A stretch of 64,000 bases of DNA, taken from an uncultured bacterium. GTDB taxonomy: Bacteria > Planctomycetota > DG-23 > CBDVDV01. The stretch is from positions 179-64,178 of the forward strand of contig CBDVDV010000002.1 of the NCBI GenBank assembly GCA_965372835.1, given 5' to 3'. The notes beneath the pieces were generated by a model. The model was not told where the DNA came from and did not search any database. It was given only the letters and a program-made list of their open reading frames with translations. Positions 25,932 through 52,603 of the stretch are shown in pieces; the first letter of the stretch is position 1, and the number at the start of each line of letters is the position of its first letter. The position numbers and the translations under genes were made by a program.

Positions 25932-26316
25932 GAGCCACCGCGGTCGCTTGCGCGGTCGGGCCTCCCGGGGCAACCAGGTCGTCTTCGGCGAGTACGGCCT
26001 CCAGTCCCTGGCGTTGGGTTGGGTGACGGCTCGTCAGATTGAGGCCGGTCGGATCGCGGCGCAGCACTTCCTGGGCTCGGAGGGGAAACTGTGGATCCGC
26101 ATCTTTCCTGACAAGTCGGTGACCGCCAAGCCGGCCGAAGTGCGCATGGGGACGGGCAAGGGCGAGCCCGAGTTCTGGGTGGCTCCGGTAAAGCCCGGGA
26201 CCATCCTCTACGAGATCGGTGGGGCGCCTGAGGAGGTGGCGCGCCGAGCGCTTAACCTCACCTACCACAAGATGCCCGTCCGCTGCCGGTTCGTCGTCCG
26301 GAGGCACAAACTGTGA
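25897..26316 (+). CDS. rplP: 50S ribosomal protein L16
   Basis: 139 aa; AAGGAGGAGG RBS; overlaps the rpsC end. Confidence 0.95.
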
Positions 26317-37107: not shown

Positions 37108-37519
37108 ATGCATCTTCTGCAAGATTGTGGCTGATGAGATTCCCTCGGCACGGGTCCACGAGACCGACCGGGTGCTGGCCATCCTCGATACCAATCCTGT
37201 GGCGCCGGGACACACATTGCTTTTGACCAAAGAGCACGTTCCCGGACTGCTCGAGGCCGACGCCGACCTCCTGTCGGCCCTGACCGAAGCGCTTCGCCCG
37301 GTGGCTCGCGGTCTGATTGCCGCGACCGGCGCCGACGGCTGCAACGTACTGTTGAACTCGGGGCGGGCTGCCGGCCAGCTCATCCAACACCTGCACGTGC
37401 ACCTCATCCCCCGCCGAACCGGTGACGGCCTGCACCTGGAGTGGCAACCGGGCCGCTACGGCGAGGGCGAGGTCGAGAACTACCGCGACCGCATCGCCCA
37501 GGCGATCCAGCAAGTCTGA
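37100..37519 (+). CDS. HIT-family hydrolase (histidine triad)
   Basis: HLHVHLIP histidine-triad motif; overlaps the rplQ end by 8 nt. Confidence 0.85.
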   Translation: MSECIFCKIVADEIPSARVHETDRVLAILDTNPVAPGHTLLLTKEHVPGLLEADADLLSALTEALRPVARGLIAATGADGCNVLLNSGRAAGQLIQHLHVHLIPRRTGDGLHLEWQPGRYGEGEVENYRDRIAQAIQQV

Positions 37520-37725
37520 CCCCGCCACCCCTGCCCTACTCCCATCTTGCCTTACGTTCGTACTGACGGCACCAGCTGTTGCTTTCGGGTGTGTTCTTTG
37601 CCCTCAGCCGCGAAGTCTGGATAGGTCGCCTGCTGCTGACGCCGGAGGAGGGGTGGCGGTCGAGCGGAACGTAGCACCGGCAGTTGCCGACGAGACGAGA
37701 GGAGGCCTGAGCGGCCCCGCGCGCG

Positions 37726-38145
37726 TCAAGGTGGTGACTGAAGCCTCTCGCGCAACTCCCGGGCCCGGAAGATGAGCTTCTCCGGATCCGGCTTGGTCAG
37801 GGGCTGCAGGACGACCTCGTAGGGGTGGTTTTCCTCGATGGTCAGGGGCCAGAGCAGGTCAAAGAAGATGTCCAGAGGGAAGAAGGAGTGGAGGGGGGCC
37901 TCCACGACGACAGTCTGCTTGGAGGTTTGGTAACCGTCTTTTCGCAGTACCAGTTCCCGGTGGCCGTAGAAGTTGAACTCGAAGGTGCAGGGCGTTTCCC
38001 CCCGTTCGACGTCGTCCAGGTAGATCCGAGCTCCCGGCGGGTCGCTTCGGACGGTGATAGTGCGCTCCACACAGCCGGCCAGGCTCATGCCCACGGTGGC
38101 GAGCAATGCCAGAACTGTCGCTTTCTTTCTTGCCGAACTTTTCAT
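37726..38145 (-). CDS. PEGA-domain lipoprotein
   Basis: Lipobox LAGC; PEGA-like SDPPGARIYLDDVERGETP. Confidence 0.65.
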   Translation of the reverse strand: MKSSARKKATVLALLATVGMSLAGCVERTITVRSDPPGARIYLDDVERGETPCTFEFNFYGHRELVLRKDGYQTSKQTVVVEAPLHSFFPLDIFFDLLWPLTIEENHPYEVVLQPLTKPDPEKLIFRARELRERLQSPP

Positions 38146-38615
38146 AGTTCCACCAGTTCCACCTTGAGAGTCTCCAGGTCGACCAGGGCTACGGTCCCCT
38201 GCTCCGTGAGCCAGGCGCCTACCTCGCCGGGGTTGACCAGGACCGCTCGGCCTCGCCGGCCTACCTCGCTGCGATGGGTGTGTCCCACCACCACGAGATC
38301 GGCCTGCGCCAACAGCGGCTCGGTGAGGTCCCCTTCCCGGTGAGCGACCAATACCTTTCGGCCACCCGCCTCAAAAGTGTGGGGCGAGTCGTGCAGATCG
38401 GGAACGATTCTTCGCAGCCCTGCACGCTCGCCGTCGTTATTGCCGAAGACGGCCACGATGGGGCCGTCGAACTTCGCCCACGCCTTCGCCGCGAAGGGGG
38501 CGACGAAGTCGCCGGCATGAAAGAGCACTTCCGCGCCCCGCCGACCGATGACCTCGACCGCCCGCTCGATCATCGGCAGGTTGTCATGGGAATCGGCGGC
38601 GACCGCTGCGAGCAT
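38142..38615 (-). CDS. YfcE/MJ0936-family metallophosphoesterase
   Basis: AADSHDN..FHAGD..VFGNND..VVGHTH motifs. ATGA overlap with the PEGA gene. The alternative longer start is 38708. Confidence 0.75.
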   Translation of the reverse strand: MLAAVAADSHDNLPMIERAVEVIGRRGAEVLFHAGDFVAPFAAKAWAKFDGPIVAVFGNNDGERAGLRRIVPDLHDSPHTFEAGGRKVLVAHREGDLTEPLLAQADLVVVGHTHRSEVGRRGRAVLVNPGEVGAWLTEQGTVALVDLETLKVELVEL

Positions 38616-38744
38616 GGCGTCGGTGCACCCTTTCGGCTCTGGACGCCCGAATACCCCCCTCCCCTCGCGGACGCCCGAAATGGTACCGGCCGTTCGCCCT
38701 GCGGTCAACGGAAAAGCAAGGGAACCCCGGTGGTGGGGCTTGGT

Positions 38745-40046
38745 TCACCAGGCCACAGGGTCGACCCGCGCTCCCTCCGGCGGCGCCATGGGGCCCCACA
38801 GGAGGGGGTCGTTCGTCTCTGTCTGCCAGCGTTCAAGTTCGCCGCGGAGCCTCCGGTAGACCTCCTCGTATTCGGGATTGCCGATAAGGTTGTTCATCTC
38901 CAGAGGGTCGTTTTCGAGGTCGTAAAGTTCCTCTGGGGGACGAACTTGCTCGGCCTCAGGGCCAAGTGACTTGGCGCTGAGGCTTCGGGCGATGTCGGTA
39001 GGCAAGGGCAGCATCGGCCGCTCTTCATAACTGCGGATGTACTTGTGGCCTTCGGTGCGGATAGCCCGCATGGGGTCGTAGATGTCGTGATAGGTCTTCT
39101 CGGCGTAGATGCGGTCTCGCTCCTGGTAGTCGCCACCGGTTAGCATCGGCAGGAAACTTCGCCCCTCCACGTTTTCAGGTGTTGGAGGGCCCGCGGCCTC
39201 CAGGATCGTCGGGAGCATGTCGACGTTACTCACCAAGTTGCCGTATACCTTCCCGCCCTCGAAGCCCGCGGGCCAGCGCATAATGCAAGCGGTCCTGATG
39301 CCCGGGTCGTAGAGCGTCGATTTCGCCCGCGGGAAAGCAATGCCGTGGTCGGTGGTGAAGATGACCCAGGTGTTCTGGGCGAGTCCGGTCTCATCGAGCG
39401 CCTGGAGCAGTTTGCCAACGCAGGCGTCGGCGGCGTGGATGAGACCGTGGAAGTCGCCGATGTCTTCCCGCACTTCGAGGGTATCAGTAAGGTAGCCCGG
39501 CACGTGGACGTCGGCCGGGTCGTCAGGGGTGTAGACCTCGGACTTGAAGTCGCGATGCACTTCGCTCCAGCCGACCATGGCAAAAAAAGGTTCCTGCTTG
39601 CCCGACGACGCTCGCCCCTTGAGGAAGTCCACGACCAGCGGTGTCACCAAGTCGCAGCGGAACGGCCGCTGGCGCTCGCTTACCCATTGGTACCCCAAGC
39701 GGGCCGGGTCGCCGGTTTCGTGCTGGAAGCCGAAGAGCAGCGTCTCGTACCCCCCTCCGGCGAGCAGTTGAGGCAGACACCGTTCGTCCGGGTTGAGCGA
39801 GAAGCCCCGGTGAGTCAGGCCGTTGAGGCCATTGACGTGAGGATGTCGGCCGGTCATGATGCTTCCCCGGCTGGGGCTGCACAGCGGGGTGGTGCAGAAG
39901 TAGTTGTCGAACCGCACCCCTTCCTCAGCCAGTCCATCGACGTTGGTGGTGCGAAGCGACGGGTCTCCGTAACAGCCCAACTGCGTCCCCAGGTCGTGTA
40001 GGATGATGAACAGCACGTTCGGTCTCGGCACCGGTGCTCCGCCCAT
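38745..40046 (-). CDS. Cys-type sulfatase (arylsulfatase family), no signal peptide
   Basis: CSPSRGS formylglycine motif, HDLG, FTTDHG. AAGGAAGG RBS. Confidence 0.85.
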   Translation of the reverse strand: MGGAPVPRPNVLFIILHDLGTQLGCYGDPSLRTTNVDGLAEEGVRFDNYFCTTPLCSPSRGSIMTGRHPHVNGLNGLTHRGFSLNPDERCLPQLLAGGGYETLLFGFQHETGDPARLGYQWVSERQRPFRCDLVTPLVVDFLKGRASSGKQEPFFAMVGWSEVHRDFKSEVYTPDDPADVHVPGYLTDTLEVREDIGDFHGLIHAADACVGKLLQALDETGLAQNTWVIFTTDHGIAFPRAKSTLYDPGIRTACIMRWPAGFEGGKVYGNLVSNVDMLPTILEAAGPPTPENVEGRSFLPMLTGGDYQERDRIYAEKTYHDIYDPMRAIRTEGHKYIRSYEERPMLPLPTDIARSLSAKSLGPEAEQVRPPEELYDLENDPLEMNNLIGNPEYEEVYRRLRGELERWQTETNDPLLWGPMAPPEGARVDPVAW

Positions 40047-40232
40047 GGTTGCCTTCCTTTCGTCGGGTCAGTCCTCTGAGGTCGATTATCAAGACGCCCT
40101 CCTCCAGCCTGAAGCCGTCACTTGATTTATCAGCGCTTTTCCGATAGTCAAGCGCCAACTGTGTGCGTGCTGCTATGCGCGGGCTGCCGATTAGCAGACG
40201 AAGGTGTGCGAAGAACCTGAAAGGGGCCTGCC

Positions 40233-41384
40233 GTGGCTGAGGAGAAGCGACCGAGTTGTGAGTGGCAAGTGGAACGTACGGTCCGCGAGAGGTGCAAGGA
40301 GTCCTCCACGGAGACGATCCAACTGACCAGTGCGCCGGTCATCCACAGTCATATCTACCCCGAGGCCCCCATCTTTACCCCGGACAGCCGATTCTTCGTC
40401 TACGCGCGGTTCGGGGCGCTCGATCAGCCTCGCCAGTACTGGCTGTGCGAGGTGGGGAACTGGCGACTGTACCGACTGACCCACGAGTCGCCGGTGAACG
40501 GCCCTGTCATCGCTCCCGATGGGGACCACCTCTATTACGTGTGGGAGAAGCGACAAGCCGTTATTGTCCTGGTGAGGCTCAACCTGTGGAGCCTGCTTCG
40601 GGAAGAAGTGGCCGTTGCTGAGGACGTGACCCGTCCGTACCCCCTGGGGACCATGTCCCCCGACGGACGATACTACGCCACCCGCGTCTTTCTGCCCGAC
40701 GGCACAGCCGCTGTCCTTCGATTCGACATCGAGGAGCGCGAGTCCCAGGTGATTCACTCCCATCCTGAGATCTTCAATGCTCACATGCAGTGGGAGCCGG
40801 GCCAGGGAAACGACATTCTCATTCAGCACAACCGCGGTGGCTTCCGTGACCAGCGTGGTCGGCTCCTCCGACTGACCGGCCCGGAGGGCGCGACGCTGTA
40901 TCTCATCGACGCCGACGGTGGAAACGTGCGCGCGCTGCCCATCGGCACGCCCCATACCCCCCGCATCCAGGGCCATCAGTGTTGGTTCGGCCGGACTGGG
41001 AAGGTTATCGCCACCCTGGGCGGCGACTTCGAGCGCGATGGCAAGAAAGGCAATCTGGTTACCATCGCCGAAGGTGAGGGGGCGCCGACCGTACTTGCCG
41101 GCGGGCCCTGTTTTTGCCACGTGAGCGCTTCGCCCGACGGGCGCTTTTTCATCTGCGACGAAAACCCGTCGGCGGACGTCTACGTCGGTTCGGCCGAGAC
41201 GGGTGCGTACAGGCTGCTCTGCCGATCGGGAAGCGTCTTCGGCTCACCTCAGTACACTCACCCACATCCATTCTTGAGCCCGGACTGCCGATACGCGTTC
41301 TTCAACTCCGTCAAGACGGGCATACCTCAGATCTACGGCTGCACGATTCCTGAGGGTTTTCTGGAGTCGTTGGCGGCTGGTTGA
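40233..41384 (+). CDS. oligogalacturonate-lyase-like beta-propeller protein
   Basis: 383 aa, GTG start. N-terminal pattern resembles the Ogl family. Repeated SPDGR/APDGD blades. Confidence 0.5.
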   Translation: MAEEKRPSCEWQVERTVRERCKESSTETIQLTSAPVIHSHIYPEAPIFTPDSRFFVYARFGALDQPRQYWLCEVGNWRLYRLTHESPVNGPVIAPDGDHLYYVWEKRQAVIVLVRLNLWSLLREEVAVAEDVTRPYPLGTMSPDGRYYATRVFLPDGTAAVLRFDIEERESQVIHSHPEIFNAHMQWEPGQGNDILIQHNRGGFRDQRGRLLRLTGPEGATLYLIDADGGNVRALPIGTPHTPRIQGHQCWFGRTGKVIATLGGDFERDGKKGNLVTIAEGEGAPTVLAGGPCFCHVSASPDGRFFICDENPSADVYVGSAETGAYRLLCRSGSVFGSPQYTHPHPFLSPDCRYAFFNSVKTGIPQIYGCTIPEGFLESLAAG

Positions 41385-41410
41385 AGTACGCCGACAAAAG
41401 GGGAAAGCAC

Positions 41411-41504
41411 TGGCGGAGAGGCCGGGATTCGAACCCGGGGAAGAGGCTTATACCCCTTCAACGGTTTAGCAAACCGTCGCTTTCAACCACTCAGCCACCT
41501 CTCC
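41411..41504 (-). tRNA. tRNA-Ser (anticodon GCT)
   Basis: Reverse complement folds with acceptor GGAGAGG/CCTCTCC, anticodon loop TTGCTAA, long variable arm, T-loop TTCGAAT, CCA encoded. Confidence 0.8.
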
Positions 41505-41576
41505 GAGGGCCTGCGTGGTAGTCTCAGTATAACAGTCGCCATCTCTGCGGGCAAGGGCGCTTTGCCAGAAGTTCTC

Positions 41577-41668
41577 TGGCGGAGGGAGAGGGATTCGAAC
41601 CCCCGGTCCACCTTACGGCGGACAACGGTTTTCAAGACCGTCGCCTTCGTCCACTCGGCCATCCCTCC
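41577..41668 (-). tRNA. tRNA-Ser (anticodon TGA)
   Basis: Acceptor GGAGGGA/TCCCTCC, anticodon loop CTTGAAA, long variable arm, CCA encoded. Confidence 0.8.
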
Positions 41669-41952
41669 GGCCGGCGCCTGCGTCATCCCCCAAAGAGAGA
41701 CGCGCCTACACCGACAGAGGCATTCACCACGGTCTGCTTCTCCGGCCAGGGCCCGCGAGCAGACATTCTTCATATCGGCGAGCCCGCTTGCGCACCAAAT
41801 CAAAAGTATCACTCCTGGCTGCTACTGGCAACCCTTTTCCCCACCAAAGACAGCGCCGCTCAGCCTCATAATAGGAGGCTGCACGCACTCCCGTAAGGTC
41901 AGGCCCACACGCTAACCCCGTTGGCGCTCACCAGGCAGAAGTGAGTGTAAGG

Positions 41953-42969
41953 TCACCCAGTGGCCAGCGCCTTGACCACCTGCTCCAGGTTCTCACGCGG
42001 GGTGCCGGGGGAGATGTCGCAGCCACTGCTGTAGATCCAGGAGCCCTGTCCTTCGACCGCACGGCGAAGTTCGCGGGTGCTTCGGTCGATGACCTCCGGG
42101 GTGCCGAAGGCAAAGACGGCACTGGGGTCCAGGTTCCCGCGGAGCACGGCCCGCGCCCGGTTCGCTTTTAGGACCTGCGCGGGTGAGACCTGGTGGTCGA
42201 TGTCCACCAGGTTGACGCCCGTCGAAAGCACGTCCTCAAAGATGGGAAGGATGTTCCCGCAGATGTGGACTCCCACCGCCGACCAGCCCGCCTGGCAAAG
42301 TTCGCCGACGACCCGGCGATGGTGGTCGAGCACCAGGCTTCGGTAGGTCGCGGGCGGGATGAAGTTAGGTGAGCAGGTGGCTTCGCCCAGCACCACGGCA
42401 TGGGCGCCCGTCTCCCGGAAGGCGAGGCCACATTTGAGCGTGATCTCTCCGGTGAAATCGAGCACCTCAGCAAGCAGCCCCGGTGACGTCAGCGTGTCCA
42501 TGAGCACCATTTCCACCCCACGCAGTTGAGCGGCCATGAGGAAGGGACCCCGCAGCGTGACGACGACCAAAGCCTCCTTGCCGATTGTTTCCACCACCCG
42601 CTCCACAGCCCGGCGAAACATGGGGAACCGACCTCGTTGGAGAACATCGATGTCCCGCAGCCGATTCAGGTTCGCGGGGTCCGCGAGCAAGCGCTCCTGG
42701 AGCACCGGCGCGCCATCAGCAGGCTGATGGACACGGGCGCCCAGGGCTTCGGGCTCTGCGGTCACCCCAAGCGACAGTTGCACCCCGTCGTAGCCGAAGG
42801 TTCGGTAGCCCCGGATGATGGTCTCGGCCATGACCTGGGCGTCGGTGAAGAATCGGCTCAGGGGGACGCCGAACATCCGGGCCAACCCCGAGTGGACGAT
42901 GGGCACAATGGGTGTGCGGTCAGGCTGCCCACCGGCAAGGACAGCCTGCACCCGCTGGAGTCCTGTCAT
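41953..42969 (-). CDS. uroporphyrinogen decarboxylase (URO-D) family protein, paralog 1
   Basis: 338 aa. MTGLQRVQAVLAGGQPDRTP.. N-terminus and URO-D-like C-terminus. ATGA-coupled to the upstream enolase-family gene. Confidence 0.65.
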   Translation of the reverse strand: MTGLQRVQAVLAGGQPDRTPIVPIVHSGLARMFGVPLSRFFTDAQVMAETIIRGYRTFGYDGVQLSLGVTAEPEALGARVHQPADGAPVLQERLLADPANLNRLRDIDVLQRGRFPMFRRAVERVVETIGKEALVVVTLRGPFLMAAQLRGVEMVLMDTLTSPGLLAEVLDFTGEITLKCGLAFRETGAHAVVLGEATCSPNFIPPATYRSLVLDHHRRVVGELCQAGWSAVGVHICGNILPIFEDVLSTGVNLVDIDHQVSPAQVLKANRARAVLRGNLDPSAVFAFGTPEVIDRSTRELRRAVEGQGSWIYSSGCDISPGTPRENLEQVVKALATG

Positions 42970-44360
42970 TGGTTCCCCGATGAGTTGAGGGATCGACCGA
43001 TCTCGTTCCAGCGGTAGCCGACGCCCGGTCCGGTAATGGTGGTGGTGTTGATGCAGCCGTCCTGAAGTTTGAAGACCCCCGGATGCACTTTGCTTTCAGG
43101 TTCGTTGGTGGCGGGGAAGAACTGGCGCGAGTTGGCCTCCACGCCCTTGAGCGGTTTCAGATGGCCGGCCAGGGCCACGGACTGGATGAGCGCGATACCG
43201 GGGTTGGTCAGGTCCTGAATGGTGTAGTCGATACCGGCGTGCTCGGCCAGCGAGGCGAACAGCAACGCCGCCGACTGGCACTTGCAAGCCTTGAGGGCGA
43301 TCCCCGACCAGCCTAACTCCAAGGCCAGGCGGAAATCGTCCACGGTCATCAGGCTCTCGTCGATAATGACAGGTTTAATGTCCCCTAACTCATGCATATC
43401 GAACCGGTGTTCGCGCAGGTCACGCTCCGTTGGCTGCTCGATGTAAAGGAGTTCGCGCTCGGCTTGCGGGTTCCGCTCTTTGAGTCTGGCGATCATCTCG
43501 ATGATGTAGTCGGGACTTTCGCACTGCTCGTTGGTGTCAGCAGAGAAGCAGAGCCCCGTGAGGCCCAGCCTCCCGTGCTCCTCGTGAGCGATGGAGACGA
43601 CCTCATCGATTCGGCTGACGTCCCAGTCCAGGTCGGTGCCTTTGAGTTTGACCTTGAGGCAGTGAAGGTGATCGTAGCGGATCCACTGGTCCAGGCTGAC
43701 GGGGAGTCCGTCCTGCGGATCGTCGTCGGTGATCTCGCTTTCCCGAAGTTTGTCCAGCCCGCCGACGAGGTGGAAGGCAGGAATGCGCTCGGGCATCCGG
43801 GCCTGGAGGTAATCGCTGACGTACCGGCCCGTGAACTCCTCGCCCAGATAGCGGGACAGGTCGTGGTTCATGTGCTCGGGGCCGTAACAGGCATACGTCG
43901 GAAGCTCATTGACGATGCCGAAGGCGTCATGGCTGGCAGCGTCGACGGGCGAGGCGGCGACCAGTTGGCACAGGTAGGGCATCGCCTCCGCAGCGCCTTT
44001 TTCGGTGCTGACGTTGGAGGCTATCGACACGAACTCGGACTCGACCTGGTGGAAATGCTCGATGGGGTGACCGTACTCGTTCAGGTTTTCGTAAACGCGG
44101 CACAGTCGGCGGACAAACTCCTCCATGATGTCGGCCCGGAGTTCGTGAGGGACGAGGGGGCTGGGCCAGCCCCACATGTCCATGAGGAACATGGCTCCCC
44201 AGCCCGTCGCCGTTTTGCCCGCCCGGTTCTCGACGGTCATCCTCACGTGACAGAAGGCCAGCGACTCCACCACCACGGCGCCGAACTTGAGCGGCGTCCT
44301 GCAGAAGGCTTGCGGGAAGTGGGGAATCGCCTCAACCACCCGGATGTCTGTTGCTTTCAC
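42966..44360 (-). CDS. enolase-superfamily (mandelate racemase/muconate-lactonizing-enzyme subgroup) protein, putative sugar-acid dehydratase
   Basis: GTG start. KVKLKG, DTNE, IEQP, IIDES, ALKACK motifs at the expected barrel positions. Confidence 0.6.
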   Translation of the reverse strand: MKATDIRVVEAIPHFPQAFCRTPLKFGAVVVESLAFCHVRMTVENRAGKTATGWGAMFLMDMWGWPSPLVPHELRADIMEEFVRRLCRVYENLNEYGHPIEHFHQVESEFVSIASNVSTEKGAAEAMPYLCQLVAASPVDAASHDAFGIVNELPTYACYGPEHMNHDLSRYLGEEFTGRYVSDYLQARMPERIPAFHLVGGLDKLRESEITDDDPQDGLPVSLDQWIRYDHLHCLKVKLKGTDLDWDVSRIDEVVSIAHEEHGRLGLTGLCFSADTNEQCESPDYIIEMIARLKERNPQAERELLYIEQPTERDLREHRFDMHELGDIKPVIIDESLMTVDDFRLALELGWSGIALKACKCQSAALLFASLAEHAGIDYTIQDLTNPGIALIQSVALAGHLKPLKGVEANSRQFFPATNEPESKVHPGVFKLQDGCINTTTITGPGVGYRWNEIGRSLNSSGNQ

Positions 44361-44554
44361 TGCTTGTCCCTTTCTCGTTGGTCAGCTTTGAGCTTGCATT
44401 GACCGCGGGGTTCTCTTCTAACACTGGCAATGGTAGCGGAGCCGGCGAGGGGGTCAAGGCCGTTTGGCTTTCTGTTCCGGGTTGAACCTCGTCATCGTAC
44501 TGGTGTATAGACGTTCGTGCTTTGAGTTCACTCTCTGGGAACATAGGTGAGACC

Positions 44555-45817
44555 ATGACCGGACGTGAACGGTTCTTGAAGATCGCCAAAGGCCAACTTA
44601 CGGGCGAGGTCTTTCTCCCCTTCGACTTCAACTACGGTTGGTTCATGGAGGAGACGCTCGAACGGTGGAGAGGAGAGGGGCTGCCTCGAGACGTCGACCT
44701 CCTGGAGCACTTCGGGTTCGACCGGGTGGAGTTTACCGGGGGGAAGCCCTACGGCCTTGTTCCGCCCTTTGAGGAAAAGGTGCTCAGCGAAGACGAGGAA
44801 ACGGTCGTCGTCCGCGACGAAAGCGGGGTCACCAAGAGGATCTTCAAGCGCTACGCCGACTCCAGGATGCCCCAGTGGTTGGACTTTCCGGTCAAGACCC
44901 GGGCTGACTTTGAAGAACTAAAGAAGAGACTTGACCCGCATTCTGCCGAACGCTTTCCCCCGAACCTGGACCAACGGAAGAAGCGATGGCAGGAACGCGA
45001 CCACCCGTTGGGGGTGGGCCCGGGGAGTTTTTACGGCCACACGCTTCAGAAGTGGGTGGGCACCGAACACCTGTGCATGCTCTTCTACGACGACCCGACC
45101 TTCGTCCACGAGATGCTGGACTACCTGGAATGGTTCTTCCTCGAATTGCTGAAGCGACTTCTCCCGGACGCCCCGGTGGTGCGGCCGCTCCGGAAAGGCC
45201 CGCGCGATTGCTCCGAACCCCGGCTGACTTCGGAGGCCCCGCCAGACCGTCAAGACAAGCGGAGCCTGGAGGCACAGCCTCTTTCGACTGGCCCACCGGA
45301 CGCGCGCAATGAGCGTACTTTCGAAAGCCCGGCCGAAAACCAAGACAGGCGGAGCCTGTTTGATTTCGCCTCCTTCGGTGAGGACATCGCCTTCAAGGGA
45401 CGGTCCTTCATGTCGCCGGAGATGTTTCGGGAGTTCATTCAGCCTCACTACGTGAGCATCTGCGAACTCCTGAGAAGCCACGGCATTGAGGTCATCTTCG
45501 TCGATAGCGACGGCTACCTCGGGGAACTCATCCCCCTGTGGATGGAGGTGGGCATCAACGGTTTCTCGCCCTTGGAGGTCGCCGCGGGCATGGACGCCCG
45601 AGCACTCAAGAAGGAGTACGGCAAGGATATCGTGCTGGCAGGGAACGTCGACAAGCGCGCCCTCATCCGGGGCAAGGCTGAGATCGATCGGGAGATCGGG
45701 AAGGTCAAAGAACTGCTGGACCTGGGAGGCTACTTCCCGGCCGTCGACCACTCCGTCCCACCAGACGTCCCCTACCGGAACTTCCAGTACTTCCTGGAAA
45801 GGCTCAGCGAACTCTGA
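44555..45817 (+). CDS. URO-D family protein, paralog 2, with internal low-complexity insertion
   Basis: MTGRERFLKIAKGQ.. start (ATG 44555, AGGTGA RBS; the track start is TTG 44522). C-terminus ..AVDHSVPPDVPYRNFQYFLE. Confidence 0.65.
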   Translation: MTGRERFLKIAKGQLTGEVFLPFDFNYGWFMEETLERWRGEGLPRDVDLLEHFGFDRVEFTGGKPYGLVPPFEEKVLSEDEETVVVRDESGVTKRIFKRYADSRMPQWLDFPVKTRADFEELKKRLDPHSAERFPPNLDQRKKRWQERDHPLGVGPGSFYGHTLQKWVGTEHLCMLFYDDPTFVHEMLDYLEWFFLELLKRLLPDAPVVRPLRKGPRDCSEPRLTSEAPPDRQDKRSLEAQPLSTGPPDARNERTFESPAENQDRRSLFDFASFGEDIAFKGRSFMSPEMFREFIQPHYVSICELLRSHGIEVIFVDSDGYLGELIPLWMEVGINGFSPLEVAAGMDARALKKEYGKDIVLAGNVDKRALIRGKAEIDREIGKVKELLDLGGYFPAVDHSVPPDVPYRNFQYFLERLSEL

Positions 45818-45848
45818 GGTCCGACCCCTTCTTCCCGGGGCGCTCCGG

Positions 45849-48488
45849 TCATCGTTTCCTTCGGGCTTCCGGCGCTGCACAACCGGGAAGCCAGAGTACC
45901 CGCACCTGCTCCGGATCAAGCTCGGTGGAGACCTCCAATCCGTCATCGGTCTGTTTGGCGGTCAGATGGTCGCCGCTCACCAGGTCTTTAATCTCGGACG
46001 CGGTCGGGATGTCCAAGGGTTGGGTTTGGATGTGGATGACCGCCTGCCCGGGGTCGGCTGAGTCGTTGAGCAGCGTCAGGTAGAGGTCCCCCTTCGCATC
46101 GGGGCCGAAGCGCTCGACGTAGACTTTGGAGTTGCTCGAAGAGGCGTACGTTACGGGCTCCCAGCCGGCCTCGGCCACCCGTCTAATGAGTGGAATGTAG
46201 TGTTTGAAGAGATGCCTGTCCCGGTTGTACCACTTTGGGTTCTTCCAGTACGGGTCCTCTGAGGCGTTGTGGCTGAACATGCTGGGGTAGATGCCGTAGA
46301 AGAGGCTCCGCTGGAAGTACTTTTCAACCAGGTCGGGAGGGAACCCTTCAAAGCGCGTGTTCATGAGCAGAAGGTAGGGCTTCTGGTAGCACATCACCCG
46401 CTTGAAAAGAAACCAACTGTCCGAGGGAGGCCCCCACTGGCCGTTGCGAACCCAGTTGGTCTCCGTACCCATGACGTCAAGCCAGGCGCAGAGGAAGCCG
46501 AAGCGGTGAGGCACGGAGTTGGCAAACAGGAGCTTCCCCATCTTGTGCAGGTCTTCCGACAGCCACCTGGTGAACTCGTAGATGGAGAATATCTTGTGGA
46601 TGACAGGCTCCCTCGAGGAGGCGGAGAAGGTGAGCGGCACGGTGGCGTAGCGGAAGTGTCGCCGGTCGAAGTTTTCGGTCGCGGTGACGTAGGCTTCCAA
46701 CGAATCGAGGTATTCGCCATCCTGCACACCCTTGGCACCCGGTCCGTAGAGGCGCTGCTTCACCTCGTCGTTCCAGTACAGCCGGGCCTCCGACCCGCCC
46801 GGGATGAAGGGGTTGGGGTTCAGGCTGAAGACGGCGCCGTCACACCAGGGGGTGTTGCGTACCAGATACTGCAAGCGGCCACCGCTGTCGCGGGAGCCCG
46901 AGACCTCCACCGCCTGCGCCTGTCTTCGGACGGCCTTGTCGCCCGAGCGGAGACAGGTCTTGAGGTGTTCCATCACACCTTCCTCGGTGCGGGGAACGTC
47001 CTTGGGCATACGCATCCACCAGGTGGAGGGTTCCGTGTAGCGGAAACTCAGGACGGCGGCCTGGTCGTCGAGGGGGACGTTGTTGTTCCCCTCATGGTAT
47101 CTGAAGCCGAAGTCCTGCCAGCCTTCCACCGTGCTCACGTCGGTGAAGGGCATCCAGATGCCCTGCTCCTTGGAGCGGCAGACGAAGTGCTCGGGGAAGA
47201 CGGAGTAGAACTTCTTGGTCGCTGAGCGGAACCCCCACGCGGGGTCGGTCCGGTAGATGACGAGCCTGAAGGAAGCGCTGCTGGGGAAGTTCCGCGTCTC
47301 GCGGCTCAGACCGAAATCGTAGGCGATGAAGAACTGCCTGGTGCTGGCGTTGTAGCCGATGCGGAATTGAGCCGGCGAGGACATATCGAGGCCGATGGCC
47401 AGTCCCGAGACGCTGTCGGTGATGGTCGCCCACGGATAGAGGGACATCAGCCCCGTTGCCCCCGTACCGATGTTCGCCGCGTTCATGTACTCCAGCGATC
47501 CTTCGATGGTCCGCCGATGGCGGACGTCGTCGTGCCAGGCCCATCCCCGCGCGTCCACGGGAAGCGCGAAGACCAGGGTGACGGCACGGTCAGCGCCCGA
47601 GGTGTCCGTAACCGTTCCGCTGACCCCGATGTGGTCCGGATGCTCAGTGAACTCGGCAACCAGTCTGAGTTTGAGGTCCGCGCACACCCCCTTTGGGAAA
47701 CCGAAGAAGTCCGAGTCGGCGGCCACGTCGCGGACAAGAAAGCCCGAGGGAATCGAGGCCGCGTGAAGGTCCATGTCGTCCACGCGAAGAGTGGAGACGC
47801 GACCGCCCTCATAGTCATAGCCGAGCGTGAGACCGTCCTCGGTGCGGTACATGGTGCCCTCCTCGCCGTCATGGCGGCTCGGGGCCGTCGTTACTGGCAC
47901 CCCGTCGAAGGCCGTCACGTCGGCGCCCGTCATCTCGTGGGCCTGGACGTCGTCGAACCAGACGCCACCAGCGTGGTCGCGGAAGAGGCAGTAGACGTTC
48001 ATCCTGGCGATGGGCCTCTGGGGGACGACCAGGACGCTGCGCTGCTGCCAGCCATGGGTGCCTGTGTCGAAGGGCGCGTGCTGACCGTAGAGGGGATCCC
48101 CCTCTGAGAAGTACACGTCCACGTAGAGGGAGTAGTGGATGTCGGGCCGGCCGGTTACGTCGGCTGCCTTGCTCCAGGCGTGCACGAAGACGGGCGCCGG
48201 GACCGCCTGGTCCAGGTGGAGCGTCTGCCCGAGGCCACACTGCGCATTCCTGGTCCCGTGGCAATAGGCAGCGGTCGAGGCCTTCCGGCCCCGGCCGGCA
48301 GACACCTCGTACCCCTCTTCCCACGGAAACCAGTGCGGGAAGGCCCCCGATCGGACCTGCTCAAAACCACCGTTCTGGAGCAGATCGGGAAGCGAGACGT
48401 CACGCAGCACCTTCATCCGCGCCTGGTCACACCAGCCTTGAGCACAGAGTAGCGTCGCAGCCATAGCGCTAAGCCACAGGCTCTTCAT
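45849..48488 (-). CDS. large secreted protein with N-terminal CBM4/9-like domain and uncharacterized catalytic region
   Basis: Signal peptide; NGGFEQV..HWF start typical of CBM4/9/22; 879 aa. Confidence 0.5.
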   Translation of the reverse strand: MKSLWLSAMAATLLCAQGWCDQARMKVLRDVSLPDLLQNGGFEQVRSGAFPHWFPWEEGYEVSAGRGRKASTAAYCHGTRNAQCGLGQTLHLDQAVPAPVFVHAWSKAADVTGRPDIHYSLYVDVYFSEGDPLYGQHAPFDTGTHGWQQRSVLVVPQRPIARMNVYCLFRDHAGGVWFDDVQAHEMTGADVTAFDGVPVTTAPSRHDGEEGTMYRTEDGLTLGYDYEGGRVSTLRVDDMDLHAASIPSGFLVRDVAADSDFFGFPKGVCADLKLRLVAEFTEHPDHIGVSGTVTDTSGADRAVTLVFALPVDARGWAWHDDVRHRRTIEGSLEYMNAANIGTGATGLMSLYPWATITDSVSGLAIGLDMSSPAQFRIGYNASTRQFFIAYDFGLSRETRNFPSSASFRLVIYRTDPAWGFRSATKKFYSVFPEHFVCRSKEQGIWMPFTDVSTVEGWQDFGFRYHEGNNNVPLDDQAAVLSFRYTEPSTWWMRMPKDVPRTEEGVMEHLKTCLRSGDKAVRRQAQAVEVSGSRDSGGRLQYLVRNTPWCDGAVFSLNPNPFIPGGSEARLYWNDEVKQRLYGPGAKGVQDGEYLDSLEAYVTATENFDRRHFRYATVPLTFSASSREPVIHKIFSIYEFTRWLSEDLHKMGKLLFANSVPHRFGFLCAWLDVMGTETNWVRNGQWGPPSDSWFLFKRVMCYQKPYLLLMNTRFEGFPPDLVEKYFQRSLFYGIYPSMFSHNASEDPYWKNPKWYNRDRHLFKHYIPLIRRVAEAGWEPVTYASSSNSKVYVERFGPDAKGDLYLTLLNDSADPGQAVIHIQTQPLDIPTASEIKDLVSGDHLTAKQTDDGLEVSTELDPEQVRVLWLPGCAAPEARRKR

Positions 48489-48508
48489 CAGGGCCCCACC
48501 AGGCTGAC

Positions 48509-49762
48509 CTAAGTCAGCTTCCTCTCCAGGAACGACCAGAAGTTGCCGCCGAAGAGCATGGCAATGTCACGTCGGATCTCATCCTTTTTCACCGTCCAGC
48601 CGGTGGCCACGAGATCGGTGTACTTATCGCAGAGGACGCCGGCGATGATGGTCTTCACGTGCTCCCACTTGTAGATAAGCTGGTCGAGCACGCGGGCGTC
48701 AGAATGCTGAGGAACGACACTCAGGCCCAGGAGCTCAAAACGCATGCGGGTCGTTTCCTCGACCAGGCCGGGGTTGTTCAGGAACCACCAGCAGCCGAAG
48801 ACCAAGAGGTTCCTGAACTTGCGGCCGGCGACGCAGAGCTCCTGCTGGTTCTCCCGGGCCAACATGGTGACCATGAACTTGTTCCGGGGATAGTTGGCGC
48901 AGAGGTACTCGACCGTTTCGATGTCGCCCTTCCCGACGGAATCGCCGGCGAGACGGAGCCCCGGGTTGGTGAGCTTCTTCACGCCGATCATCATAGAGAA
49001 GGGCAGGTCGCGTTCATCGCAGACCGGGAGCACACACTCTTTCATGAGCGTGGCCCGGGCCGAGTCCTCCGGGAAGCGGAAGGTCGGCGGAAGCGACGCC
49101 GCCAGGTACAGGGCGCCCATGCGCTCGGCCCAGTCGCCGAGGAAGCGCCTGACCTCCGCGAAGGTCTTGTCAGTCAGCGCCTGTTCGACCTCGTAGCCCC
49201 ATTCTTCGAGGCGCGGCCAGGCCGTCTCCCAGGTGTTGAGCAACCGGTCAATTCGAAGAGCGGCCTTAAAGCGAGCGTCGCCTTCGTACCCCTTGAGCCA
49301 GAGTGGGCGCTCCAGGTCGTCAAAGGGGTCGTTGGTCATGACGACTTCTTTGACACCGGACATCTGTAAGGCGAGGTCGACGTACTCTTCGACCGTCTTT
49401 TCCGAGAAGAATTTTCGGTAAGAGGTCAGGTCCCGAGCGCCCACGTCGAGCCCCAGGCGCGCGAGCACCGTCAAGACCCCCCGGCAGGACTCGCTGATGG
49501 GGCTTCGTTCGATAAAGAGGGTCTTCCAGATGAGGTCCGCCTGCTCAGTCTTCGACATACTCCAGAAGTTGTCGTAGGACACGTCGAGCCAGCGGAAGAC
49601 TTCGGCGACCAGGTAGTGGTAAGTCAGGAGGTCATCGATCCCCCACAGCAGGAGTTCCCCGAAGCCCGGGTCGTAGATGTGGGTGTGGATGTCGGTGATG
49701 GGCACCTCGGCGATGGCCGTGTCCACGGCCGTTCTCAGGTCCTGCGGGTTCGCGATCGGCAT
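48509..49762 (-). CDS. glucuronate (uronate) isomerase-like protein
   Basis: ITDIHTHIY and GCWWFLNNPG resemble UxaC DYHCHL / WWFNDH regions. ATG 49762 preferred over the track TTG 49846. Confidence 0.55.
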   Translation of the reverse strand: MPIANPQDLRTAVDTAIAEVPITDIHTHIYDPGFGELLLWGIDDLLTYHYLVAEVFRWLDVSYDNFWSMSKTEQADLIWKTLFIERSPISESCRGVLTVLARLGLDVGARDLTSYRKFFSEKTVEEYVDLALQMSGVKEVVMTNDPFDDLERPLWLKGYEGDARFKAALRIDRLLNTWETAWPRLEEWGYEVEQALTDKTFAEVRRFLGDWAERMGALYLAASLPPTFRFPEDSARATLMKECVLPVCDERDLPFSMMIGVKKLTNPGLRLAGDSVGKGDIETVEYLCANYPRNKFMVTMLARENQQELCVAGRKFRNLLVFGCWWFLNNPGLVEETTRMRFELLGLSVVPQHSDARVLDQLIYKWEHVKTIIAGVLCDKYTDLVATGWTVKKDEIRRDIAMLFGGNFWSFLERKLT

Positions 49763-49983
49763 GTCCTTTACTCCATCGTGCAGAAGGGCGATTCCAGGGC
49801 ACTGCCAGTGTGGCTGAGAGTACCCCACGACCGACAGCGTCGGCAAGGGGAAATCGCGCTGCTCGCAATGGCCTCACTCCCGCGCAAGAGAGAGGCTGGA
49901 TTCGCCGGAGAGCAGCCTCGTGCTCTACGGAGACAGGGCCGCTCAAGGGGCGTGGCCGTCCAGCCAGACAGGTGACCACGGCT

Positions 49984-51162
49984 TCACTTCAGTTCGAAGA
50001 AGGTACCGGCGATGTGCGTTCGGCCGCCCGGCCAGGGCAGGTCGTCTTCCTCGACCTGCCAGTAGTAGGCGGTGAAGAGGCGGCCGTCTTTGAGTTCCAC
50101 GGCCACGGGGTAGCCGCCGTCCTGGTCACTTACTGGTGGCGAATCGTCGCGCAGCACTATCTCCTCCGACCAGGTCTTCCCCTCGTCCTCACTCACGATG
50201 CAGCACATGCGCATGGGAGGTTGGCAGCGGACGATGTAGACGATCACGATCCGCCCGTCCCGAAGGAGGATGGAGTACGGAGACACCGACCAGCGGTCGA
50301 TCCGCCTGGGAGGAGCCCAGGTGTTTCCCAGGTCGTCTGAGTAGGTGACGGCCGTGTAGCGAACCGCAGCCGAGCCAGCCCACATCCCCAGGCTGCAGAA
50401 GAGCCGACCCGAGGGGAGCAGGAGCACCTTCGGGTAGGAGAAGGTTTCCAGGGTGTTGGGATCGAAGTGGATGGTGGAGACGTAGTGCCAGGTGACGCCC
50501 TGGTCGGTGGACATGTAGAGCTGGGGGGCGCGCTTCATACCCAGGTTGCCTCTGAGGATGGGCCCCAGACACCCGAGGAGCCTGCCGTCGCGCAGCACCA
50601 GGTAGAAGTTGTTGAAGACGGCCACGTTGTCGCCCATCTGCGGGCGGAAGATGACGGGGTGGTCCTCCCACGTCCGTCCCCGGTCGGCTGAGCGGAGCCC
50701 CCAGATGACCCGCTCGTGGTAAACCTTGCCGCCCCGAACGCTGGGAAGGCCCACCCACGCGCCACTCGTGTAAAGCACCGAGTCCGGATGCGACATGTCG
50801 ATGTCGGGGCGCTCGACCTCGTTGTTCCTCCGGATGGGTTTGCGGGTGAAGCGGTCCAGACCCAGCCATTCCCATTGGTCCCTTAGGTGTCGGCGGTTGT
50901 CGTAAAGGTCGAACTCCTCTCCCCAGGTAGATCCGCCGTTCAGGCTGCGCTGGAAGCGGTTGGTGGCCCGCCGCCAGATGCCATGCTCACCGTGGGCCTT
51001 GTCCTGGGCGTCGGTGTACTCGCTGTGGGAATGGATGTGCCCGAGCAGGATTTCATCGTCCTCAGGCCAGTACCAGATGCCCCCGAACCGGGGCCAATGG
51101 CACACGGTGTCCTTGGCGTAGCAGATGCGGATGTGCTCCAGGTTTTTCAGGCTTTCGTCCAT
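49984..51162 (-). CDS. BNR/Asp-box repeat glycosidase (sialidase-like), no signal peptide
   Basis: Four SxDxGxTW boxes (SADRGRTW, STDQGVTW, SDDLGNTW, SEDEGKTW). AGGAGG RBS. Confidence 0.7.
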   Translation of the reverse strand: MDESLKNLEHIRICYAKDTVCHWPRFGGIWYWPEDDEILLGHIHSHSEYTDAQDKAHGEHGIWRRATNRFQRSLNGGSTWGEEFDLYDNRRHLRDQWEWLGLDRFTRKPIRRNNEVERPDIDMSHPDSVLYTSGAWVGLPSVRGGKVYHERVIWGLRSADRGRTWEDHPVIFRPQMGDNVAVFNNFYLVLRDGRLLGCLGPILRGNLGMKRAPQLYMSTDQGVTWHYVSTIHFDPNTLETFSYPKVLLLPSGRLFCSLGMWAGSAAVRYTAVTYSDDLGNTWAPPRRIDRWSVSPYSILLRDGRIVIVYIVRCQPPMRMCCIVSEDEGKTWSEEIVLRDDSPPVSDQDGGYPVAVELKDGRLFTAYYWQVEEDDLPWPGGRTHIAGTFFELK

Positions 51163-51179: not shown

Positions 51180-52499
51180 CTACTCTTGGCCCCGCTGATA
51201 GCGTGCGTAATCGCCCATGGCTTGTTCGTAGTAGGGGGTGCGCAGCGGCCCCTCAGGGATTGGGTCGCCCACCTCTTCCATCCACTGCCACAGGCGGTTG
51301 GAGAGTTCTTCGACCAGATCGGCATATGACGTGTCTTGGCCCAGGTTCTCGTATTCGATGGAGTCCTCTTTTAGGTCGAACAACTGCACCACAGGACGGG
51401 TGCCGTCTCGACGCGGTCGTTCCACATGTTCGGCCACCGCCTGCGGGTCGACGTCGATGGGTTTGACGATGGTCCGACCGGGCTCGAAGTAGCGGATGAG
51501 TTTGTACCGGTCCGTGCGGATGCAGCGACAGGTGTTGTCGCGCAGAGGTTGGCTGACGTGCTCGGCGAAGACCGCATCGCGGATGGGCGCGTCTGATTCC
51601 CCCCGAAGGATCTTCGCCGCGCTGACTCCCTGGACGTTCTCGGGGATGGGTGCGCCAACGAGGTCGAGCAGTGTAGGCAGGAAGTCGACGTTACTCATCA
51701 GTTGGCGGTGAACCGTCCCACCGACGAGGCCACCGGCCGGCCAGCGCACGATGAGGGGGGTTTCGAGCCCCGGATCGAAGAGGCTCCACTTGGCGCCGCT
51801 GTAAGGGATGCCGTGGTCGGAGGTAAAGATGACCACGGTGTTCTCAGCCAGGCCGCTTTGCTCGAGGCCGCTCAGGATCTCACCGACGCCCGCGTCCATG
51901 AACTTGATGGCCCCCTGCAGACCCGCAAGGTCGTTTCGAATCACCTCGGTGTCAGCGAGGTAGGGCGGGACGTAGACGCCTTTTTCGCTGTCGGGCTGGA
52001 CGCCTCCGGTGTCGAACCGGCGGTGGACCTCGTGGAAGCCGACTTTGAGGAAGAAGGGAGGGTCGGTCGGCTTCTGATGCTGCAGGATTTCCACTGCCGA
52101 GGAGGCTTTCTCGGGGGCCAGTCGGCCGGCCTCGACCACATCGTGGTAACCGAGGGTGTGGGGGTCGTCCCTGGTGACGTGTTGGAAGCCGACGAGGGTC
52201 GTGTGATACCCGGCCTCTGAGAGGAGGCTGGCCAGGTGCCGTTCCCCTGGCTTAAGGGACCAGAGCCAGGGCGTATGGGTCAGCCCCATGAGCCCGTTGG
52301 TCTGGGGGTATCGGCCGGTGAGGATGCAGCCTCTGCTGGGGCTACATACGGCTGCTGCAGCGAAGTAGTTCTCGAAACGGGAGCCTTCTCGGGCGAGACG
52401 GTCGATGGAGCCGGAGTGCACGGTCTCGACGCCGTAGCAGCCCAGGTGCTGTCCCAGGTCGTGGCAGGTCATCATCAGGATGTTCGGCCGGGCGCTCAT
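51180..52499 (-). CDS. Cys-type sulfatase, paralog 2, no signal peptide
   Basis: CSPSRGC, CHDLG, TSDHG. Start M at 52499 by alignment with paralog 1; alternative GTG 52541. Confidence 0.8.
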   Translation of the reverse strand: MSARPNILMMTCHDLGQHLGCYGVETVHSGSIDRLAREGSRFENYFAAAAVCSPSRGCILTGRYPQTNGLMGLTHTPWLWSLKPGERHLASLLSEAGYHTTLVGFQHVTRDDPHTLGYHDVVEAGRLAPEKASSAVEILQHQKPTDPPFFLKVGFHEVHRRFDTGGVQPDSEKGVYVPPYLADTEVIRNDLAGLQGAIKFMDAGVGEILSGLEQSGLAENTVVIFTSDHGIPYSGAKWSLFDPGLETPLIVRWPAGGLVGGTVHRQLMSNVDFLPTLLDLVGAPIPENVQGVSAAKILRGESDAPIRDAVFAEHVSQPLRDNTCRCIRTDRYKLIRYFEPGRTIVKPIDVDPQAVAEHVERPRRDGTRPVVQLFDLKEDSIEYENLGQDTSYADLVEELSNRLWQWMEEVGDPIPEGPLRTPYYEQAMGDYARYQRGQE

Positions 52500-52603
52500 G
52501 GCACACTCACTCCTTTTCCGACCAAATTGCCGTCTTCTCACACATTCTCTTCCTCACCGGGCCACGCATGTTCCCACTGAGCGACGGCACCGTCAACAGG
52601 CCC

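Follow-up and report, generated by a model that had tools for sequence, protein, structure and literature searches.

Predicted enolase-superfamily and MtaA-like URO-D-fold enzymes encoded by an overlapping gene pair in an uncultured planctomycete

A stretch of 64,000 nucleotides from an uncultured bacterium of the Planctomycetota (GTDB lineage DG-23; CBDVDV01; GenBank assembly GCA_965372835.1, contig CBDVDV010000002.1, positions 179 to 64,178 of the forward strand; here called the window) carries two overlapping minus-strand genes, one for an enolase-superfamily protein (ENO) and one for a protein with the fold of uroporphyrinogen decarboxylase (URO-D), which we call UROD1. The two proteins represent uncharacterised families inside well-known superfamilies. 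The residues of ENO and its predicted structure point to the active-site pattern of the muconate-lactonizing enzyme (MLE) subgroup and not to the acid-sugar dehydratase subgroups, and those of UROD1 point to an MtaA-like barrel with a putative zinc site. Genes of the two families adjoin one another in a minority of loci, and this arrangement recurs in two ENO clades at a frequency that is above chance by rough reasoning, which is the basis for the tentative functional link discussed below.

Layout and expression signals of the gene pair

ENO, the first gene of the pair, is an open reading frame (ORF) at positions 42966 to 44360 (minus strand, GTG start, 464 amino acids), and UROD1, the second, is an ORF at positions 41953 to 42969 (minus strand, ATG start, 338 amino acids). 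The ENO stop codon TGA and the UROD1 start codon ATG have four bases in common; read directly from the sequence, the reverse complement of positions 42966 to 42969 is ATGA, in agreement with the preliminary description of this DNA. Purine-rich motifs precede both starts (GGGGA some 5 nt before the UROD1 ATG and AAGGGA upstream of the ENO GTG), and the G+C content at third codon positions (GC3; 0.82 for ENO and 0.80 for UROD1) is like that of other genes in this 64% GC window. A sigma-70-like promoter match (TTGACC-16-TACCAT, minus strand, positions 44430 to 44457) lies 70 to 97 nt upstream of ENO, in the region that separates it from a divergently transcribed second URO-D-fold gene, UROD2; it is a consensus match only, agreeing at 9 of 12 positions, and two such sites were observed in that region versus 0.4 expected. 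Because the genes overlap by 4 bp, leave no intergenic space and have a promoter-like site upstream of ENO, a single transcription unit is very probable, and it is plausible that ENO and UROD1 constitute one two-gene operon. An Rfam scan of positions 37500 to 50000 (E ≤ 1) returned two tRNA genes and sub-threshold noise, with no riboswitch or other cis-regulatory RNA such as a cobalamin riboswitch. The terminator scan was empty on the strand of the pair downstream of UROD1; a 7-bp hairpin lies about 70 nt away, in a region with a folding z-score of −1.17, and we make no claim for it.

The overlap itself is an ordinary habit of this genome and nothing special. On the basis of a GC3-guided gene list of the window, 4-bp ATGA or GTGA overlaps occur at no fewer than seven same-strand junctions, including the ENO/UROD1 junction, secY/adk (ATGA), adk/map (GTGA), a pair of ORFs of 1235 and 1399 amino acids (GTGA, positions 13492 to 13495), rpoA and the ORF that follows it (ATGA), and the junctions at positions 26313 to 26316 and 38142 to 38145. 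Among relatives, one locus (L092) keeps the ATGA overlap, with ENO and UROD1 both 88% identical to those of the window, and three others (L087, L093 and L142; ENO 82% and UROD1 67 to 70% identical) have a 12-bp gap in its place, with an AGGAG upstream of the UROD1-type start in L087. Overlaps of this kind permit translational coupling and do not imply equal amounts of protein. The stoichiometric co-expression proposed in the preliminary description therefore loses its footing, given that such overlaps are common in the window between genes whose products form no complex and that a gap replaces the overlap in relatives with an 82% identical ENO. The argument from translational coupling is weak, and the pair does not amount to a novel type of system.

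ENO has the active-site pattern of the MLE subgroup

The motifs previously noted in the ENO translation, K236-V-K238, D275-T-N277, I307-E308-Q309-P310 and D334-E335-S336, are all present and are invariant in an alignment of 23 homologs of 52 to 82% identity, so that the loss of catalytic residues named in the preliminary description as a ground for refutation is not seen. The invariant set in these homologs comprises K236, K238, D275, N277, E308, D334, E335, K357, K360, D383, E408 and N410. In the AlphaFold (AF2) model (pLDDT 93.3), the protein forms a (beta/alpha)7-beta barrel with the conserved residues at strand ends: beta2 (residues 234 to 238) ends at K236/K238, beta3 (271 to 275) at D275, beta4 (304 to 308) at E308, beta5 (331 to 333) at D334, beta6 (353 to 356) at K357 and beta7 (378 to 382) at D383, and strand 8, which reads G-V-E408-A-N410 in the alignment, ends at E408. 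The capping domain and modified TIM barrel with carboxylates on strands 3, 4 and 5 that define the enolase superfamily are all found in ENO, and its sequence and model together identify it as a genuine, and by prediction catalytically intact, enolase-superfamily enzyme.

Enzymes of the MLE subgroup use a Lys-x-Lys motif on strand 2 and a lysine on strand 6 as an acid/base pair and have no histidine on strand 7, whereas acid-sugar dehydratases of the MR, GlucD and ManD types have either a dyad of a strand-7 His and a strand-6 Asp or the Tyr/Arg-His pattern of ManD. ENO carries the former set (K236, K238 and K357). Across the 23 homologs and in the AF2 model it has neither a His-Asp dyad nor a conserved strand-7 His; strand 6 leads to K357 and strand 7 to D383. 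Its predicted active site is thus of the MLE pattern and not of the acid-sugar dehydratase subgroups, and "sugar-acid dehydratase-like," as the gene had been called, is not the best description, although ENO may still catalyze a beta-elimination.

Searches of family and structure databases place ENO in the same vicinity. Pfam recognized only the C-terminal MR_MLE_C domain (52.8 bits versus a cut-off of 29.4), the N-terminal MR_MLE_N domain was undetected, and no dehydratase family in Pfam or NCBIfam matched. The menC models of NCBIfam scored weakly (TIGR01928, 25.6 bits versus a cut-off of 200.65; TIGR01927, 18.1 versus 130.55), and an identity of ENO with MenC (o-succinylbenzoate synthase) was ruled out by these sub-cut-off scores and by the lack of men-type genes among the recurrent neighbors. 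The best sequence match in the PDB is the N-acylamino acid racemase 2zc8, at a marginal E-value of 0.0025, with E308, D334 and K357 paired residue for residue; a profile of the ENO family matches 3iji, a dipeptide epimerase from Bacteroides that bears the deposition name "muconate cycloisomerase," at a likewise marginal 0.00026, with D275, E308, D334 and K357 paired. A Foldseek search of the PDB with the ENO model gave 341 matches at E ≤ 0.001, of which the top 50 all belong to the enolase superfamily; the list is headed by the dipeptide epimerase 3jva, followed by muconate-lactonizing enzymes and OSBS/NSAR, at 13 to 17% identity and query-normalized TM-scores of 0.54 to 0.63.

UROD1 resembles MtaA and not HemE

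UROD1 matches the Pfam URO-D family over its full length (200.7 bits). Among NCBIfam models it scores about 153 bits with those for MtaA/CmuA and 53.4 bits with the hemE model TIGR01464 (cut-off, 302.95). The solved structure that it matches best is that of Methanosarcina mazei MtaA (PDB 4ay7; E = 4.5e-30, full length, 24% identity), in which "lHICGN" aligns with "vHICGN" of UROD1 and "apGCgiaP" with "ssGCdisP." HemE structures match weakly, mainly at residues 160 to 332, leaving the N-terminal third unaligned, and a cysteine of UROD1 ("ssGCDis") stands opposite the C-terminal His of HemE ("nlGHGis"). The features by which HemE is recognized, namely, a score above the TIGR01464 cut-off, a full-length alignment that takes in the Arg-rich N-terminal segment for substrate binding, and this C-terminal His, are thus all missing, and the ligand pattern of MtaA/CmuA, His-x-Cys with a C-terminal Cys, appears to be present.

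Across 21 homologs (50 to 97% identity) there is no variation at these putative ligands, H235, C237 and C317, nor at E196 and C199 (in the motif GEATCSP), D256 and D258. After a 6-residue construct offset, the three putative ligands align with the zinc ligands of MtaA, which we take to be His240, Cys242 and Cys319. The AF2 model of UROD1 (pLDDT 95.8) matched MtaA with TM-scores of 0.88 to 0.90 and HemE with 0.82 to 0.86 in Foldseek, with MetE and BHMT lower in the list; both of the latter are zinc-thiol alkyltransferases. Since UROD1 is MtaA-like, has an invariant His-x-Cys...Cys and falls far below the HemE model, a decarboxylation step is unlikely, and UROD1, to which a decarboxylase role had earlier been assigned, is an MtaA-like URO-D barrel and very unlikely to be a decarboxylase.

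Both families are large and widespread among uncultured lineages

Among 8000 candidates scored for the window protein, 2633 matched the ENO family at E ≤ 0.001. Relatives occur in at least 467 stretches of GTDB species-representative genomes, and the best 80, which we examined, are all from uncultured organisms, among them Planctomycetota, Chloroflexota/Anaerolineae, Armatimonadota, Acidobacteriota, Zipacnadia, WS1 and Elusimicrobia. A sister clade, ENO-B, is 40 to 46% identical to the window ENO and is larger still, yielding at least 8000 matches at E ≤ 1e-50. As seen from loci L111, L124 and L162 to L164 and from proteins P0262 to P0381, ENO-B proteins are 72 to 81% identical across Anaerolineae (Chloroflexota), Hydrogenedentota, Phycisphaerae (Planctomycetota), Limnochordia and a bin labeled Nitrospiraceae. 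This unusual degree of conservation suggests that the enzyme, which is uncharacterised, either has an important role or is often transferred horizontally. Orthologs of UROD1, at 50 to 60% identity, are found in the same phyla as the ENO family.

ENO and UROD1 genes adjoin in a minority of loci

Conservation of the pairing was examined from both sides, in 80 GTDB genome loci with flanks of up to 10 kb for ENO and in 67 metagenome loci for UROD1, of which 43 have at least 1.4 kb of upstream sequence. All neighbor counts are lower bounds, as the crude ORF-based gene calling mis-called antisense ORFs (e.g., L092:278-1792). An ENO gene lies directly upstream of the UROD1 ortholog in 5 of the 43 loci with enough upstream sequence. 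Adjacency on the same strand was found in the close relatives L087, L092, L093 and L142; an ENO/UROD1-type pair, P0003/P0123, is encoded on one 4640-bp contig; and cluster members from a Planctomycetota metagenome-assembled genome carry the adjacent NCBI accessions MCK4300589.1 and MCK4300590.1. ENO-B is directly upstream of UROD1 in L108, L111 and L124 and within about 700 bp of it in L099. Pairs on the same strand, 0 to 150 bp apart, are present in two ENO clades that are only 40 to 46% identical. A canonical MR/MLE gene beside the UROD1 ortholog of L144 is convergent with it and hence was not counted as support.

Seen from UROD1, ENO forms the largest neighbor cluster (8 loci including the window, with a median gap of 4 bp), and MR_MLE_C is the top Pfam family among the immediate neighbors (6 of 95 ORFs), followed by xylose-isomerase-like TIM barrels, other URO-D paralogs, GH42-like proteins and Gfo/Idh/MocA oxidoreductases. 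In L124 the operon order is Gfo/Idh/MocA, ENO-B, UROD1, C-N hydrolase and S-adenosylmethionine methyltransferase. Seen from ENO, the commonest neighbors are Gfo/Idh/MocA oxidoreductases (18 loci), D-2-hydroxyacid dehydrogenases (15 loci; median gap, 427 bp), xylose-isomerase-like TIM barrels (15 + 9 loci), SDR proteins (10 loci), Nramp transporters (7 loci) and amidohydrolases (6 loci), and the contexts are highly variable, ranging over ispD/ispF, Nramp, P5C reductase and ABC transporters. Gfo/Idh/MocA oxidoreductases, xylose-isomerase-like TIM barrels, D-2-hydroxyacid dehydrogenases, C-N hydrolases/amidohydrolases and glycoside hydrolases are common to the neighborhoods of the two families.

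Rough reasoning puts the chance adjacency of two given families at about 1 in 10^3 genes per genome, compared with the 5 of 43 observed, and the pattern would fit a functional link for which the genes need not be physically linked. Consistent pairing of ENO-B with UROD1 was ruled out, since the long contigs L162 to L164, each from a different phylum, are all without a URO-D neighbor.

Genes for Nramp-type divalent-metal transporters stand directly upstream of ENO-family genes in L005, L017, L023, L024, L025, L031 and L071 (median gap, 27 bp), and one lies beside the UROD1 ortholog of L113; a connection of these neighbors with the supply of metal cofactors to the enzymes is possible.

A possible functional link and its alternatives

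We hypothesize that ENO and UROD1 are a functionally linked module of an enolase-type and an MtaA-like enzyme, probably serving one catabolic route, and we hold this view tentatively, as a serious possibility that falls a little short of an even balance. In ENO the predicted Mg2+ ligands are D275, E308 and D334, and the acid/base lysines are K236 and K238 of strand 2 and K357 of strand 6. The specific chemistry that we propose for the pair is more speculative and, taken as a whole, rather unlikely. By the mechanism of its superfamily, ENO would abstract the proton alpha to a carboxylate to give a Mg2+-stabilized enediolate; this would then be reprotonated from the opposite face (epimerization or racemization) or would expel a beta-leaving group. 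In UROD1, Zn2+ would make a thiol(ate), or a comparable nucleophile or leaving group, reactive enough for a methyl or alkyl group to be transferred, with no decarboxylation, much as in MtaA, MetE and epoxyalkane:CoM transferase. Because both families share neighbor types and the local setting is glycan related, the substrate would most likely be an acid that is released when glycans or peptides are degraded and that bears a modification (methylation, or a thio- or N-substituent). In its most explicit form, which we consider very unlikely, this would be a corrinoid-independent module in which a zinc-thiolate URO-D-fold alkyltransferase strips or transfers the methyl or thio substituent of a glycan-derived acid and a new enolase subgroup then epimerizes or beta-eliminates the product; if true, it would give the first functional handle on the very large and highly conserved ENO family.

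A number of results weigh against a functional link of this kind. From the ENO side, a UROD1 ortholog is adjacent in none of the 80 GTDB loci, and a URO-D-family gene of any sort lies within 10 kb in only 6 of them; the five distinct long-contig ENO loci (L002, L005 and L162 to L164, including Brocadiia, Hydrogenedentota, Limnochordia and Phycisphaerae) have no URO-D neighbor; and in L089, where ENO is 76% identical, UROD1 is absent. From the UROD1 side, 38 of the 43 orthologs have other upstream neighbors. UROD1 also stays below the curated MtaA/CmuA cut-offs (153.5 versus 235.4 bits for TIGR01463, 153.3 versus 244 for NF004889 and 127.8 versus 400 for MtaA_Meth), and for this reason it is not a certified member of MtaA/CmuA. 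B12-binding or corrinoid-protein families were not found in the 40 window ORFs scanned, nor do B12-binding families appear among the families occurring in at least two of the 95 immediate neighbors of UROD1 orthologs, as far as the 25 of 51 families listed show. The co-located corrinoid protein, usually accompanied by a reductive activase, by which corrinoid-dependent methyltransferases are recognized is thus missing at UROD1, and with no such gene nearby the classical methyl donor of MtaA-type enzymes is missing too, although a partner elsewhere in the genome is possible.

The main rival holds that the two genes are neighbors without a shared pathway, packed into a compact operon and with separate roles, UROD1 serving, for example, a corrinoid methyltransferase system encoded elsewhere. 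We regard this as a credible but somewhat doubtful account. It explains readily why 4-bp overlaps are routine in the window between functionally unrelated genes (secY/adk/map), why ENO-family genes overwhelmingly occur without URO-D genes and in such variable contexts, and why the pair is already broken in the 76% identical relative. It fits less well with same-strand adjacency at 0 to 150 bp in two divergent ENO clades, with the position of ENO as the single commonest neighbor of UROD1 orthologs, with an observed frequency well beyond the rough chance estimate, and with the recurrence of other URO-D subfamilies beside ENO genes: in L032, L036 and L064 a URO-D gene that is not a close UROD1 ortholog is adjacent to ENO or one gene away.

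Two further accounts concern the reactions. ENO might act in the salvage of peptidoglycan or peptides by epimerizing or racemizing peptides or N-acyl amino acids, in the manner of dipeptide epimerases or NSAR, and UROD1 would then be an accessory enzyme. Its best PDB sequence matches (an N-acylamino acid racemase and the Bacteroides dipeptide epimerase) and its best fold match (3jva) are of this type, and amidohydrolase, C-N hydrolase, M14/M20/M28 peptidase and NamZ genes lie near ENO-family genes in several loci. The identities are only 13 to 17%, however, with marginal E-values, and the commonest neighbors are sugar-type oxidoreductases and TIM-barrel isomerases. In dipeptide epimerases, strand 8 ends with an Asp-x-Asp that binds the ammonium group of the substrate; ENO has G-V-E408-A-N410 there, which may speak against this role. 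On balance we think this role quite unlikely. The route envisaged in the preliminary description, in which ENO would make a 2-keto-3-deoxy acid from an acid sugar and UROD1 would decarboxylate it, is in our judgment highly improbable. It draws on the intact enolase-superfamily motifs, on carbohydrate-related surroundings (sulfatases, GH1, BNR and an oligogalacturonate-lyase-like propeller), on the frequency of D-2-hydroxyacid dehydrogenases beside ENO, on the URO-D fold of UROD1 and on the ability of MLE-subgroup enzymes to dehydrate, of which OSBS is an example. Against it stand, for ENO, K357 on strand 6 and D383 on strand 7 in place of a His-Asp dyad and the lack of any Pfam or NCBIfam dehydratase assignment, and, for UROD1, a hemE score of 53 bits where the cut-off is 303, an unaligned N-terminal third, and a Cys for the His of HemE together with an MtaA-type His-x-Cys; moreover, we know of no metal-thiolate URO-D-fold decarboxylase.

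URO-D paralogs and genomic surroundings

UROD2 (positions 44555 to 45817, plus strand) is divergent from ENO and matches Pfam URO-D in its C-terminal half only (50.8 bits); its start is likely the ATG at 44555, which gives MTGRERF as in other paralogs, and not the TTG at 44522. Its residues from about 213 to 275 form a low-complexity insert of about 60 amino acids with abundant Pro, Arg, Ser and Glu (PLRKGPRDCSEPRLTSEAPPDRQDKRSLEAQPLSTGPPDARNERTFESPAENQDRRS), which the closest homolog (L064, 39% identity) is without. A third paralog is located at positions 61640 to 62839 (minus strand). Both paralogs lack the His-x-Cys and Gly-Cys ligands of UROD1, having VDSDG / LHTDG and VDHSVP / HIHNIQP instead, with VDSDG and VDHSVP in UROD2; they therefore represent a different, also uncharacterised URO-D subfamily. 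Relatives of paralogs 2 and 3 adjoin ENO or UROD1 genes in L064, L099, L150, L159 and L160: L064 has a divergent ENO/UROD2-like arrangement as in the window, and a gene like UROD2 or paralog 3 follows UROD1 in L099 and L150, so that UROD2 is possibly associated with the pair. In L089, the intergenic region upstream of ENO contains, at positions 3545 to 3616 of that locus (minus strand), a 24-amino-acid match (71% identity) to the C terminus of UROD2, which looks like what is left of a URO-D paralog after its deletion.

Two tRNA-Ser genes (anticodons GCT and TGA; positions 41411 to 41504 and 41577 to 41668, minus strand) lie 285 to 540 bp downstream of UROD1, and because of them the ORFs listed at 41483 to 41812 (minus strand) and 41562 to 41915 (plus strand) are spurious. 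Carbohydrate-type genes in the window include sulfatases at 38745 to 40046 and 51180 to 52541, a BNR protein, two GH1 genes and the oligogalacturonate-lyase-like propeller. Between UROD2 and the BNR/sulfatase genes, two ORFs with high GC3 (45849 to 48488, minus strand, 879 amino acids; 48509 to 49846, minus strand, 445 amino acids) gave no Pfam or NCBIfam match. Positions 87 to 37519 are mostly plus-strand coding and resemble the conserved ribosomal-protein/RNA-polymerase/secY-adk-map-rpoA region, a resemblance checked with Pfam for secY, adk, map and rpoA alone; the glycan-related region with ENO and UROD1 begins right after it, so that core genes give way abruptly to accessory ones.

Significance and comparison with known systems

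The ENO and UROD1 families are large and well conserved, have no characterised member, and are abundant in uncultured Planctomycetota, Chloroflexota, Armatimonadota, Acidobacteriota and Hydrogenedentota. The recurring pair, of which we found no description in the searchable literature, is one of few handles for assigning function to either family and thus a lead for enzyme discovery, and its analysis corrects the tempting mis-annotation by which "uroporphyrinogen decarboxylase family" is read as decarboxylase, a reading that is almost certainly wrong here. If the two enzymes are functionally coupled, the catabolism of glycans or peptides would join enolase-type carbanion chemistry to alkyl transfer that depends on zinc; if they are not, the locus is simply a compact operon of two enzymes from uncharacterised families.

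The known enzymes closest to ENO are those of the MLE subgroup (MLE, OSBS/NSAR, and L-Ala-D/L-Glu and other dipeptide epimerases), with which it has in common the two-domain fold, the KxK of strand 2, the Asp/Glu/Asp of strands 3 to 5 and the Lys of strand 6. It exceeds them in length by about 100 residues, and its N-terminal capping domain is enlarged, with additional helices at about residues 72 to 120; it also differs in its remote identity and moderate TM-scores, in the absence of MR_MLE_N, in forming its own very large family, and in having no men, cat or peptidoglycan-recycling operon context.

For UROD1, the methylcobamide:coenzyme M methyltransferases of methanogens (MtaA/MtbA; 4ay7) offer the same URO-D (beta/alpha)8 fold with an aligned His-x-Cys and C-terminal Gly-Cys. 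Unlike MtaA, UROD1 is only 24% identical to that structure and below the family cut-offs, occurs in a Planctomycetota host without a corrinoid protein gene nearby, and has an additional invariant GEATCSP (E196, C199) where MtaA has ADPVASP. The bacterial homologs of the methanogen coenzyme M (CoM) methyltransferases described so far are encoded in type 1 mlp clusters, in which a corrinoid protein and a RACE activase accompany two or three paralogs of Mlp; these clusters are confined to obligate anaerobes (73% Firmicutes) and have a proposed role in methyl-sulfur or methyl-selenide metabolism (Kountz & Balskus, PMC10418091). UROD1 is like these proteins in being bacterial and MtaA-like, whereas it is paired with a gene of the enolase superfamily and has neither a corrinoid-protein gene nor an activase gene beside it. 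With HemE, finally, UROD1 shares the fold (TM-score, 0.82 to 0.86) and the Pfam family PF01208, but at 16 to 21% identity, with 53 bits versus 303 on TIGR01464 and with the N-terminal substrate-binding region of HemE unaligned, and it has a Cys for the His of NLGHGI and a putative metal site that HemE lacks.

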